A DNA stretch of 64,000 nt from a virus, in IMG/VR virus record IMGVR_UViG_3300010885_080919, positions 34,321-98,320 of that record; one strand, written 5' to 3'. How positions within the stretch are numbered: the first letter of the stretch is position 1; each line of letters begins with the position of its first letter. Positions 2,161 through 17,535 of this stretch are shown piece after piece. A program made the position numbers and the translations under genes. Below the pieces are notes generated by a model that did no database searches, had not been told where the DNA came from, and saw nothing but the letters and a program-made list of their open reading frames with translations.

Positions 2161-2939
2161 AAAAAAATGGGTTTTTATTAGTTAAAGATTTTTGTACTAA
2201 TGATGTCAAAAATATAAAAAAAGAAATGGAAGTTTCTTTTGAATTAATTTGTAAAAGAAAATATAAAAATATAGACAAGGATATTATTTGTTTATTCAAA
2301 GAAGATAGGTCTAAGTTTTTGGGTTGGGCCAACATGTGTCAGAATTTGTTGTCTGTTCATAGGCTTGCAAATTCAAAAAAAATTGAAAACTTATTGGTTT
2401 CTAATGGTTTAAAAATGCCAGTTTTAAACACTAGGCCTCTTCTTTCTTTGAGTTGCAAAAGTATTGCTGAGCACGAATCATATTGGAAGGTCCCAGATCA
2501 TCAAGATTGGCCTAGCACGAGAGGCAGCCTTAATGGCGTTACAATTTGGCTGCCTTTAATTAGTTTATGCAATAATCTGGGTCCTTTAGAGGTTTTAAAA
2601 CATAGTCATTTAGACGGATTGTTGAACCACGATAATGATGGCTTGGTACCTGTAATTAGTAGCGAAATATCGTCTGATTTTATATCGAAAAAAATGAAAA
2701 TTGGAGATATTTTGATTTTTAATTATTTTACAGTGCATAGATCTGGTACTAATTTATATGCTGATAGAATAAGATGGTCTTTGCATTTTAGATACGATGA
2801 TGCAAAAGAAAAAACTTTTATAGAAAGAAAATATCCTAGATATAAAAAAGATATAAGATTAGATGAAAAATTAGATTATTCTTTTCCTACTAAAGAACAA
2901 ATAAAAAATGCTATTTTTACTAAAACAAAAACGTCCTAA
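2154..2939 (+). CDS. PhyH-like 2OG-Fe(II) dioxygenase
   Basis: HQD...TIWLPL...GPLEVL..SH...GDILIF...VHRS..N...R. Confidence 0.85.
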   Translation: MLEKNGFLLVKDFCTNDVKNIKKEMEVSFELICKRKYKNIDKDIICLFKEDRSKFLGWANMCQNLLSVHRLANSKKIENLLVSNGLKMPVLNTRPLLSLSCKSIAEHESYWKVPDHQDWPSTRGSLNGVTIWLPLISLCNNLGPLEVLKHSHLDGLLNHDNDGLVPVISSEISSDFISKKMKIGDILIFNYFTVHRSGTNLYADRIRWSLHFRYDDAKEKTFIERKYPRYKKDIRLDEKLDYSFPTKEQIKNAIFTKTKTS

Positions 2940-3714
2940 TATAGACTTTTTTATAAAAAAAATAAAGAATAATGAGTATTTTTATTACTGTAAATTAAAT
3001 CATGCTTTTTTTGAAGCTACTTGTTTGGGTTACGAAATTCCAAAACAAAGATTTGAAACCTTGCATTCTAATATTCTTTCTCAAATAATTGATATAATTA
3101 AAAATTTTCCTAAAGATAATAATTTTTTATTTGCTTTTTCTGCAAAACCTTATGAGGGGTTCAAACCGCCATCAGATAAAAAAGTTATAGAATTTTTGTA
3201 TTCTATTTTACCTAGACACAAATTTTTAGTTTATGATTCTTTGCTTTTTAAAAAATATTGTATTAGTGGCGAGATTGTGAAGTTGTTCGATATAATTAAT
3301 TTAAAAAAAATGAAAGTTATTTTGTATGGATTGGATCATTTAAAAAATGTCAATAAAAATATTAATTTTTTAAATTTTGAGTTTAGAAAAATTAATATTG
3401 ATGTCACCAAACAAAAAGAAGCTTTGATTTATGACATAATATCAAAACATGAAAGCAATTCTATTTATTTTTTTCAACTTGGAGAGGCTTTATCAACTTG
3501 GGTCATTTATAATATTTACAACAATATCAAAGATTCGTATTTTATAGATCTGGGCAGATCTATAGATTATTTTGTTGATCTTAAAGAAATGAAATTTTCT
3601 AAAGAAGATCAAGATATATATCTTGATCTTTCTCAAAATACTTTAAATTTAAATGATCATTTTTCTAATTGTTTTTCAAATAAAAATTGGATGATAAAAT
3701 GGAATAAAAATTAA
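2908..3714 (+). CDS. Hypothetical protein, possibly GT-D-like glycosyltransferase
   Basis: C-terminal FIDLGRSID motif; cluster context. Confidence 0.4.
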   Translation: MLFLLKQKRPNIDFFIKKIKNNEYFYYCKLNHAFFEATCLGYEIPKQRFETLHSNILSQIIDIIKNFPKDNNFLFAFSAKPYEGFKPPSDKKVIEFLYSILPRHKFLVYDSLLFKKYCISGEIVKLFDIINLKKMKVILYGLDHLKNVNKNINFLNFEFRKINIDVTKQKEALIYDIISKHESNSIYFFQLGEALSTWVIYNIYNNIKDSYFIDLGRSIDYFVDLKEMKFSKEDQDIYLDLSQNTLNLNDHFSNCFSNKNWMIKWNKN

Positions 3715-15265: not shown

Positions 15266-15318
15266 GGGGGGGTAGGAGAAATGCTCCATACCCATCTTCT
15301 TCTACCCCCTCTTTTTTT
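15266..15318 (+). terminator. Intrinsic terminator after SSB
   Basis: GGGGGTAGGAGAA/TTCTTCTACCCCC stem followed by T-tract. Confidence 0.7.
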
Positions 15319-15343
15319 ATATTTTACAATACAAGGAATTTTT

Positions 15344-16588
15344 ATGGCTAAGAAGAAAAATGCGGTTGATGCTGATGAAGAAGATAATTTCTTTGAGGAT
15401 TTCGCAAAGAAAACTGGATGCGAAGTTCTTGATAAAATAGATAGTGTTAAATATTTTGTAGACACAGGCTCTTTAGCCTTGAACTACATATGCTCAGGAA
15501 AATTTATAGCTGGTGGTGTTCCGGGCGGCAAATTAACAGAAATATATGGCCCAAGCTCTTCTTCAAAGAGTTTAATTGGTACGAATATATTGCATGGTTG
15601 CCAGAGAATGAAAGGAATTCCAATCCTTTTAGATTGCGAGAATTCTGCAAACAAAGAGTTTATTAAGAAGGCATCTCACTGCGATCTTAAAAAGGTGGCA
15701 CGATGTGCTCCAGAAAGTTTGGAAGAAGTCTTTTTGAAGATGCACAAGATGATTGAATATGTGCGTGAGAAAAAAGATAATAGTGTTCCAATTGTTATTT
15801 TGTACGATTCGATTGGAGTATCACCATCAGCCAGAGAGCTTAAAGAAGTAGCACTGCCTGAGAATTTTACAAAAGCAGATTTCAAAAGAATAGTCGGAGG
15901 AAATGAGCAACCGGGCGAAAGAGCCAAGATTTGTTCAAAGGAATTCAGGAAACTGAACACCGCTTTGGAAAAGCATAATGCCACGGTTGTAATATTAAAT
16001 CAGACTAGAGATAAAATCGGCGGTTTTGCTCCAATGGGAATGCAGGCAAAAACCACAGCGGGTGGTGGTAACGCTCTTCCTTTTTATGCTTCATGTCGCA
16101 TAGAAACTAAGACCCAAATTAAAATTGACCGTAAAATTACGGCAACTAAGAAAAAGGTCTTGGGAATTAATGTCAAGATGAAGAATGTGAAAAACAAGAC
16201 TCATAGGCCATTCATAGAGTCAGATAACATTCAACTATTGTTTGATAGAGGAGTTAATCCTTTGAGTGGTCTCTTGTCTTGTTTGATGGACGCAGATCGC
16301 ATCGAAGCAAAGAGTGCAGGAAATTTTCTTGTCAAACAGCCATGGGCAGGAACAGAAGAAGAAGTAAAATTCAAGGCAAGCCTTGATCGAAATGATGTTC
16401 CTATGGATATTTTGCTCAAATGTCCAGGTTTAATCGATGCTGTTAGCGAAGAAGAAGTGAGAGAATATCTAGAACCTTTTATGGAAGCAATTAATTTTGA
16501 TCCTGAAAGCGACAAGGACATTGTCATCACTGATGTTTCCTCAGGATTTGATGATTACGGAATTGATGAAGATTTAGAAGCTGAGTAA
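15344..16588 (+). CDS. recA: RecA/UvsX-like recombinase
   Basis: DTGSLALN, GKLTEIYGPSSSSKS, D.E, YDSI, ILNQTR, GG.ALPFYAS.R, VKNK; acidic tail. Confidence 0.9.
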   Translation: MAKKKNAVDADEEDNFFEDFAKKTGCEVLDKIDSVKYFVDTGSLALNYICSGKFIAGGVPGGKLTEIYGPSSSSKSLIGTNILHGCQRMKGIPILLDCENSANKEFIKKASHCDLKKVARCAPESLEEVFLKMHKMIEYVREKKDNSVPIVILYDSIGVSPSARELKEVALPENFTKADFKRIVGGNEQPGERAKICSKEFRKLNTALEKHNATVVILNQTRDKIGGFAPMGMQAKTTAGGGNALPFYASCRIETKTQIKIDRKITATKKKVLGINVKMKNVKNKTHRPFIESDNIQLLFDRGVNPLSGLLSCLMDADRIEAKSAGNFLVKQPWAGTEEEVKFKASLDRNDVPMDILLKCPGLIDAVSEEEVREYLEPFMEAINFDPESDKDIVITDVSSGFDDYGIDEDLEAE

Positions 16589-16602
16589 AAAATTATAAGA
16601 AT

Positions 16603-16641
16603 GGTGGGTGGTGCTAGTCCTTTTGGAAAGCACCACCCACC
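16603..16641 (+). terminator. GC-rich hairpin between recA and tRNA (terminator or processing signal)
   Basis: 13-bp inverted repeat GGTGGGTGGTGCT/AGCACCACCCACC; no strong U-tract. Confidence 0.5.
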
Positions 16642-16651
16642 GGAACTTTAT

Positions 16652-16922
16652 GGCCCCATCGTCTAACGGTTAGGACAGCAGACTTTCAAAAGGGAGTGCC
16701 TAAAGAGAAATCTTTAGAGTAGAATCGCTCAAAGTCGGTGAACGCTTTAAAATGCTAATACCGAGCCAAGCCTAAGTGATTAGGAAGGTGTAGAGACTTG
16801 ACGGGCGACACCTAAAGCAACAGCTATGGTGAAGGTAAAGTCCACAGACAAATCGAAAGAGCAACGAAAGTTGCAGTGTCTAGGTCAATCTGCTAATCGG
16901 AGTTCGATTCTCCGTGGGGTCA
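16652..16922 (+). tRNA. tRNA-Glu(UUC) interrupted by a group I intron; exons 16652-16685 and 16885-16922; CCA not encoded
   Basis: Acceptor GGCCCCA/TGGGGTC, D-arm, anticodon stem GCAGA/TCTGC, reconstituted loop CTTTCAA, T-loop GTTCGATTC. Confidence 0.92.
16686..16884 (+). ncRNA. Group I self-splicing intron (IC3, Azoarcus tRNA-Ile intron-like), 199 nt, no ORF
   Basis: P1 with U.G at splice site, P2 GAAA loop, P3 CGCTC/GGGCG, P4 TCGGTG/TACCGA, GTAGAGACTT/AAGTC P7, P8 receptor CCTAAAG..TATGG, P9 GAAA loops, terminal G. Confidence 0.9.
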
Positions 16923-16940
16923 CTTTAAAATTTAAATTAA

Positions 16941-17186
16941 ATGCACGAAACACCTGATAAACAGTACCGCCTCAATAATGTGGCCAATTTAATTTTAATT
17001 CTCCAGAGGTTGCCACAAGACGCCCTAATATATCCTGTTAGTATTAATTGCGAAATGGACCTTTCCTGCACAGAAGTAGTCACTACTATCGAATTGAAAA
17101 TATTTGCAAACTTATTAGATGTGATCTCAAATCCTGTAGCGGTTATCGAACAAAACATCACACCTAATAGGATAGAGTTTAAATGA
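16941..17186 (+). CDS. Hypothetical protein
   Basis: ORF coupled to next gene (ATGA overlap). Confidence 0.45.
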   Translation: MHETPDKQYRLNNVANLILILQRLPQDALIYPVSINCEMDLSCTEVVTTIELKIFANLLDVISNPVAVIEQNITPNRIEFK

Positions 17187-17530
17187 ACGACCTTGTTGAA
17201 AGATTAATTGCTGCATCTCAACTTCTTAATGAAGCCGCAGAAAAAATCAAAGAGTTAGAGGATTGTCTTCGATGGACACCAATTGAAGACGGTATCCCCA
17301 CAGAATATGAATATGTAGAATATACAGGCATGTGCGGAACGCAGATTGGGCGTGCTTTTCTTGAATCATCAGGCACTATTAGCTTCATGGAGGCAGAAGA
17401 TGGCCCCCATCACATAGGTACTGATGAACAAGGCCAGATTGGAGTTACTCACTGGCGACGTATTCCAAAAGACCCTACAGCCGATCAGATACTGAACAGC
17501 ATCAAGACGACAGATCATCGAATTTCTTGA
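17183..17530 (+). CDS. DUF551-like phage protein
   Basis: RW.P.E...P and VTHWR.IP motifs. Confidence 0.6.
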   Translation: MNDLVERLIAASQLLNEAAEKIKELEDCLRWTPIEDGIPTEYEYVEYTGMCGTQIGRAFLESSGTISFMEAEDGPHHIGTDEQGQIGVTHWRRIPKDPTADQILNSIKTTDHRIS

Positions 17531-17535
17531 TTGAT

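Follow-up and report, generated by a model that had tools for sequence, protein, structure and literature searches.

Can the anticodon of a phage tRNA gene be split by an intact self-splicing intron and, if so, to which intron lineage does it belong and what does it mean for the phage? This question is raised by the only tRNA gene found in a 98-kb metagenome-derived IMG/VR record, of which bases 34321-98320 were analyzed here as a single stretch of 64,000 nucleotides (the window). The CheckV completeness of the record is about 20%, which implies a genome of several hundred kb. A first-pass annotation made from the letters of the window had described a 199-nt group I intron after U34 of a tRNA-Glu(UUC) gene, with a P1 helix of ACUUUC and GGGAGU carrying a U·G pair at the splice site, a full IC3-like core, a very short P5 region and no ORF. 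All of these readings are borne out by the data below, and we regard it as highly probable that a large uncultured phage here carries a genuine tRNA-Glu(UUC) gene, which an intact, ORF-less IC3 group I intron splits between U34 and U35. The predicted parts of the gene are:

16652..16685, plus strand: tRNA-Glu(UUC) 5' exon (acceptor 5' strand, D arm, anticodon-stem 5' strand, C32-U33-U34)
16686..16884, plus strand: group I intron, 199 nt, ORF-less (IC3, tRNA-Leu(UAA)-type clade), based on RF00028, covariation in relatives and the MFE fold
16885..16922, plus strand: tRNA-Glu(UUC) 3' exon (U35-C36-A37-A38, anticodon-stem 3' strand, 4-nt variable loop, T arm, acceptor 3' strand, discriminator A)

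Joining position 16685 to 16885 in silico gives a 72-nt canonical cloverleaf that ARAGORN names tRNA-Glu(ttc), with a 7-bp acceptor stem and a 4-nt variable loop; CCA is not encoded in the gene. The predicted ligated-exon junction consists of GCAGACUU followed by UCAAUCUGC and would restore the anticodon loop CUUUCAA. Indeed, an uninterrupted tRNA-Glu in an unrelated phage contig has an anticodon arm (GCAGACTTTCAATCTGC) that is exactly the one predicted here after splicing, and the first 26 nt of the window tRNA-Glu are identical to those of a split metagenome copy (L154, see below). The spliced tRNA has a Glu-type body, combining the 4-nt variable loop, in which position 47 is absent, with U11-A24 and U13·G22 in the D arm. 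The same characters are identity features for the GluRS of E. coli. Standard gene finding fails at this locus: ARAGORN at default settings found no tRNA in the 64 kb and, with introns allowed, misnamed the gene tRNA-SeC(tca) with a 187-nt intron. The miscall arises because intron and 3' exon both start with TCAA, a duplication that the first-pass annotation had rightly suspected of misleading tRNA scanners.

The intron itself is recognized by the group I model RF00028, the type of check that had been suggested for it. The match (16676-16865) scores 59.4 bits, above the gathering threshold of 50, with an E-value of 1.5e-12 over the full model length (1-253), and no other Rfam match was found in the 64-kb window or in the whole 98-kb record. 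Its predicted structural elements are:

16682..16697, plus strand: P1, ACUU/UC (16682-16687; the slash marks the splice site), loop AAAA, guide GGGAGU (16692-16697)
16700..16717, plus strand: P2, CUAAAGA with UCUUUAG, GAAA loop L2 at 16707-16710; 7/7 pairs compensated in the family
16725..16730 with 16803-16808, plus strand: P3, UCGCUC with GGGCGA; 100% of cells paired, 5/6 pairs covary
16735-16740 with 16759-16764, plus strand: P4, invariant in 49 sequences
G16744-C16745 with G16754-C16755, plus strand: minimal P5; covaries, GC to CG in 5 sequences and to AU in 2
GCC 16765-16767 with GGU 16787-16789, plus strand: P6, invariant
16771-16775 with 16780-16784, plus strand: P6a hairpin, loop GUGA; 4/5 pairs covary
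GACUU 16795..16799 with AAGUC 16838-16842, plus strand: P7; 100% paired, last pair changes from U-A to A-U in 17/49
16809..16831, plus strand: P8, CACC with GGUG, inner AGC with GCU, AACA loop; outer and inner pairs covary
16832..16842, plus strand: J8/7 (AAGGUA) and the P7 3' strand (AAGUC), columns invariant or nearly so in the family
AGACA 16846-16850 with UGUCU 16877-16881, plus strand: P9, from the MFE fold
16853-16860, plus strand: P9a mini-hairpin, UC-GAAA-GA, from the MFE fold
16861-16874, plus strand: P9b, GCAAC-GAAA-GUUGC, from the MFE fold
16884, plus strand: intron 3' end, A-G and then the omega-G; G at the end in all 49 relatives

P7 and P3 make up a pseudoknot, and guanosine is expected to bind in P7. 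The single-sequence MFE fold alone gives P2, P3, P4-P6a, P8 and P9-P9b. The short P5 has an 8-nt loop and, besides two Watson-Crick pairs, a C/U mismatch; the longest ORF wholly inside the intron measures 30 aa and lies on the minus strand. A three-part P9 is also found in the relatives, with compensated stems (ACCAC/GUGGU or ACUAC/GUAGU in the family, AGUAC/GUACU in the metagenome copy L152). The location between anticodon-loop positions 34 and 35, the absence of a P5abc extension and the GNRA tetraloops (GAAA in both L2 and L9b) are traits of IC3 tRNA introns.

Comparison with relatives supports this fold. Searching IMG/VR for two core strings yielded at least 118 stretches, and of 123 regions examined with ARAGORN, 73 fell within split tRNA genes. 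With the junctions fixed by homology and by eye, 49 distinct introns, including that of the window, were aligned by MAFFT. An attempt to enumerate all U/G splice pairs with ARAGORN as judge was abandoned as too permissive, since it yielded many false joins. MAFFT misaligns P1 as well as the P9 of the window; the latter was therefore read by hand and from the MFE fold. RNAalifold on the 49 introns recovers P2, P3, P4, P5, P8, P9 and P9b, with 25 of 43 pairs compensated. In a 53-pair model that spans P2-P9b and includes P6, P6a and the P7 pseudoknot, 97.5% of the cells across the 49 introns form a standard pair, versus 24-45% in a control in which the 3' partners were slid by 1-3 columns. Both sides change in 31 of the 53 pairs, and none of 500 shuffles reached the observed values. 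All helices are formed in the window intron, which also matches the family at 72/72 invariant columns.

The host tRNAs of the IMG/VR set are dominated by Leu(UAA), which accounts for 35 distinct introns. The others are a class I tRNA with anticodon UAA (4 distinct introns), Arg(UCU) (3), Lys(UUU) (2), Met(CAU) (2, located one loop position earlier), Thr(UGU) (1), Gln(UUG) (1) and Glu(UUC) (1, the window only). Every aligned host tRNA offers C32-U33-U34, with the exception of the two Met(CAU) copies, and among the 49 introns conservation of the guide's GAG reaches at least 90%. The class I hosts with a 5-nt variable loop and anticodon UAA (L097:1503-1710 on the minus strand, L099, L113 and L059) carry the same intron type, and a Leu anticodon on such a non-Leu-shaped body is odd. 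A phage tRNA-Gln(UUG) (L098:2882-3080 on the minus strand, and L015) holds a 199-nt intron of the same clade after U34, and its anticodon stem (GCAGA/UCUGC) is identical to that of the window tRNA-Glu.

Other split tRNA-Glu genes were sought with a pattern combining a Glu-type D-arm end, five bases, CTT, the guide and the core strings, which was checked on the window. It had no match in IMG/VR besides the window's own record and none in 185,579 GTDB species genomes. A second pattern (ACTTTC..GGGAGTGC..GTAGAA) met only two chance matches in IMG/VR, both coding. Among metagenome contigs the Glu-directed pattern gave five matches, one by chance and four real:

L151 and L154, identical: 198-nt intron in tRNA-Glu(UUC)
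L152, 3566-3842, plus strand: 205-nt intron in tRNA-Glu(UUC)
L153, 743-1007: 194-nt intron in tRNA-Glu(UUC)

These four contigs, representing three distinct sequences, have the tRNA-Glu(UUC) cut at the same site as in the window, each with U(-1)·G and a G/UCA 3' junction. Their proteins have nothing in common with those of the window phage, and most lack a PHROG match. In L154 (5113-5629) the split tRNA-Glu comes first in a small group of tRNA genes, with Gly(UCC) and Gln(UUG) after it. The acceptor stem of L153 is mismatched, with a 5' half like that of the window and an acceptor 3' strand like that of L152; not every copy thus sits in a working tRNA. Recombination (perhaps exon co-conversion during homing), decay to a pseudogene or a chimeric assembly could each explain L153.

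In a quick maximum-likelihood tree of the introns, from which the guide region was left out, the four Glu introns group together with weak support (SH-aLRT 80) and belong to a clade with phage Lys, Arg and Gln introns (SH-aLRT 87). L152 is the closest Glu copy of the window (SH-aLRT 96 for the pair, 84% identity). The two introns differ by double compensatory substitutions in P2, P3, inner P8, P9 and P9b, and such paired changes are a hallmark of selection acting on the fold among the Glu introns. Where the same core occurs in GTDB genomes, the hosts are chiefly fMet/Met(CAU), Leu, Arg and Thr genes, in bacteria of candidate phyla, Omnitrophota and Planctomycetes; no such intron was seen in Glu.

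The genomic neighborhood places the tRNA gene in an otherwise conserved gene order. Upstream of it lies a UvsX-like recombinase gene (15281-16588), itself preceded by a gene for a gp32-like protein; small unknown ORFs follow downstream. Twenty-one IMG/VR relatives, collected through UvsX and with contigs of up to 381 kb, have the conserved order gp32, UvsX, gap, 148-aa ORF (minus strand), amidoligase and 162-aa ORF. Where both flanking genes were matched, the gap in these relatives measures about 90-600 bp. None of the 21 has a tRNA at this locus, nor was there a blastn match. In the window the gap (16589-17535) is 947 bp long, and besides the split tRNA it accommodates two ORFs (16941-17186 and 17183-17530) and a 12-bp hairpin. 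The absence of the tRNA from all syntenic relatives indicates that the tRNA-Glu gene is a lineage-specific insertion. The hairpin (16603-16641, GGTGGGTGGTGC ... GCACCACCCACC) is perfect and G+C-rich, has a 15-nt loop and lies between the uvsX stop and the tRNA, 10 nt upstream of the latter; it has no U-tract, and its possible roles include termination, processing and stabilization. No promoter-like site was found directly upstream of the tRNA-Glu, which counts against our preferred explanation. The first 10,000 bases of the window have a G+C content of 0.24-0.29, versus 0.32-0.41 in the rest.

We considered the alternative that the intron is a decayed relic that has lost splicing, leaving the tRNA-Glu gene dead. 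Several observations would suit this reading. The phage lineage can do without the tRNA, as the 21 relatives demonstrate; damaged copies do exist, as seen in L153; P5 is minimal and contains a mismatch; and no homing endonuclease that could maintain the intron was found in or beside it, the neighboring ORFs lacking a Pfam or PHROG endonuclease match and the nearest HNH matches lying about 13 kb downstream (weak, below the Pfam cut-off) and about 45 kb upstream. Yet all core helices and the family-invariant nucleotides are intact, the nearest copy differs by compensatory changes, the pattern that selection on the fold would produce, and the mature tRNA is canonical. We consider a relic unlikely and favor an intron that is still able to splice.

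If it splices, does the phage make use of it? The first-pass annotation had proposed that splicing could gate supply of this tRNA or shield its anticodon loop from host anticodon nucleases until maturation, and the precursor would then form a nuclease-proof pool during infection; neither the sequence nor its surroundings offered any support for this idea. The arguments in its favor are circumstantial. A very common codon is served by the one tRNA detected in the 98 kb: GAA ranks second in the record, at 5.4%, with a GAA:GAG ratio of 3.4:1, a usage that also suits a genuine tRNA-Glu gene. Moreover, unrelated contigs have kept this intron lineage in their tRNA-Glu. Against it, introns of the same clade behave like selfish elements in residing in capsid genes and a wide range of other tRNAs; a search of the 98-kb record for an RNA ligase gave none; and the mature tRNA would be unprotected and as exposed as any other tRNA. 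In addition, L152 carries a free-standing HNH gene (2909-3475, minus strand) 90 nt upstream of and divergent from its split tRNA-Glu, the layout expected for collaborative homing, which points to mobility instead. A role for the phage is thus quite improbable, and the intron is most likely a selfish, phenotypically near-neutral passenger.

The exact splice register deserves separate attention, as P1 contains two adjacent U·G pairs. One is the wobble of U34 (16685) with G16694, which we take as the 5' splice site and which has its counterpart as U(-1)·G in all four Glu copies; the other, one base downstream, involves the first intron base (U16686·G16693). The 5' site is consequently assigned by homology and by the requirement that the anticodon loop have 7 nt. 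Cleavage elsewhere, e.g., after the next U, would create a different anticodon or an 8-nt loop, and ARAGORN indeed accepts further in silico joins, including SeC(tca), Gln(ttg) and Thr(tgt). Only U34 combined with G16884, however, unites U(-1)·G, a terminal G, a 7-nt loop and a Glu-type body, and only this combination yields a D arm and 4-nt variable loop like those of other tRNA-Glu genes. The three other distinct Glu copies keep this register, as do the relatives in Leu, Lys, Arg and Gln tRNAs, making a different site very improbable. That the whole arrangement is a chimera of intron and tRNA fragments, conceivable for a metagenome-derived IMG/VR contig, can practically be dismissed, as the exons fit perfectly and the exon-intron-exon layout recurs in four contigs assembled independently from three metagenome datasets.

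For the tRNA split after U34, we propose the following course, inferred from the established group I mechanism. The precursor would fold into the ribozyme, with the guide GGGAGU and the ACUU/UC target forming P1. Free guanosine would attack after U34, the U of the U·G wobble, and the freed 3'-OH of U34 would then attack after the omega-G at 16884, joining U34 to U35 and restoring the UUC anticodon. Host enzymes would subsequently trim the tRNA and add CCA, and modification of U34 would be possible only after splicing. The guide bases G16692-G16693 would first pair with U+1 and C+2 of the intron. Once the first step is complete, the same two bases could pair with U35-C36 of the 3' exon, providing a P10 of only 2 bp, which weighs against our preferred explanation. 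Since the GAG of the clade's guide reads C32-U33-U34, such an intron could settle at one site in any tRNA with a U-first anticodon, as in Leu(UAA), Lys, Arg(UCU), Thr, Gln and, here, Glu. The conserved GAG together with the shared C32-U33-U34 would fit a spread by reverse splicing or by endonuclease-assisted homing among these tRNAs.

Among known systems, the closest match is the 'Leu.3Ug' type of intron in tRNA-Leu(UAA). It shares with the window the 34/35 site, the CUU target cut after its last U, the GAG(U) guide, the IC3 core, the three-part P9 with a GAAA-capped hairpin, a size of about 200 nt and the absence of an ORF, and its phage copies are 77-82% identical to the window intron. The window differs by its host, Glu(UUC), which is a class I tRNA, by its location in a phage genome and by a P1 that is extended via the first two intron bases, copies of the 3'-exon start. 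The first-pass annotation had called the intron Azoarcus-like. The Azoarcus tRNA-Ile(CAU) intron ('Ile2.5Ug') indeed resembles the window intron in its IC3 subgroup, small size and GAAA loops on P2 and P9, and in Williams' seed alignment its J6/7-P7 and J8/7 core strings are nearly identical to those of the window. As represented there, it is nevertheless inserted after position 36, two loop positions further 3' (5Ug versus 3Ug), and has a single P9 hairpin and a longer P5. The assignment to IC3 thus stands, while 'Azoarcus-like' is imprecise, because in its 34/35 site, GAG(U) guide and three-part P9 the window intron agrees with Leu.3Ug. In the same source, other '3Ug' bacterial tRNA introns (Lys, Arg(UCU), Thr, Ser) have the site and CUU target of the window, and both Glu and Gln are absent from the seed settings of that preprint (Williams, 2020).

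Closely related introns are present in phages that have already been sequenced. The nearest GenBank phage matches are unannotated introns in tRNA-Leu(UAA) of LR756501 (77% identity; L004:1480-1684), LR756511 (L006, about 1280-1650) and Atu_ph07. The former two are 'huge phage' assemblies, and the intron of LR756511 holds an HNH-type ORF, with a CxxC...H motif region just before the P7 core. Atu_ph07 (MF403008.1, about 112.9-113.3 kb) is an isolated Agrobacterium jumbo phage with a 278-nt intron after U34 (L003:1487-1764), and its tRNA-Leu(UAA) is itself unannotated. Core-related group I introns, again all unannotated, were also seen at L001:1464-1654, L005:1446-1626 and 2155-2335, and L002:1444-1691 and 2017-2273. 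They interrupt the capsid gene of pelagiphage HTVC120P and, at two positions, that of an uncultured deep-sea phage; two more lie between annotated ORFs of Pseudoalteromonas phage pYD6-A. The introns in protein genes (HTVC120P, deep-sea phage capsid) belong to the same core clade, with 86-87% identity over about 75 nt, and interrupt ORFs, whereas that of the window interrupts a tRNA. The 'enigmatic' tRNA introns of Lak megaphages (PMC6784885) likewise split a phage tRNA in the anticodon loop, but these inserts are without a group I core and would need protein enzymes, in contrast to the complete ribozyme core found here.

According to Hausner et al. (2014; PMC3984707), all phage group I introns then known were located in protein genes, and Devoto et al. 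(2019; PMC6784885) stated that introns in phage tRNAs had not previously been reported, their own not being of group I. Al-Shayeb et al. (2020) make no mention of introns. For bacteria, Williams (2020, preprint) gives 21 settings for such introns, with no Glu in the seed alignment. The host list of the first-pass annotation (Leu(UAA), fMet, Ile and Arg) is therefore out of date, while its view of Glu as an unusual host holds against that alignment. In the literature searched, we found no published group I intron in a tRNA-Glu or in any phage tRNA gene; reports elsewhere are possible. The predicted mechanism is ordinary self-splicing, and the new element, as far as the sequence tells, is the Glu host in a phage.

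In summary, tRNA-Glu(UUC) is added to the tRNAs that host group I introns, and our survey shows that such introns occur quite often in phage tRNA genes. Because standard tRNA finders miss or misname the split genes, phage tRNA inventories and analyses of codon supply are incomplete. Should the phage use the intron after all, the pool of unspliced pre-tRNA-Glu would be immune to host anticodon-loop nucleases, protecting the tRNA for the second-commonest codon, or its rate of release would be set by the level of guanosine nucleotides, providing a timed tRNA supply during infection. A related and less exotic possibility, likewise improbable, is that these introns move as RNA, reverse splicing into any tRNA with a U-first anticodon and guided by nothing more than C32-U33-U34. 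They would then offer a natural test system for a transposition route that, to our knowledge, no one has demonstrated directly. Closely related introns occupy one homologous site in at least seven tRNA species that share only C32-U33-U34 opposite a conserved guide, which makes them good natural material for testing the spread of group I introns via reverse splicing.
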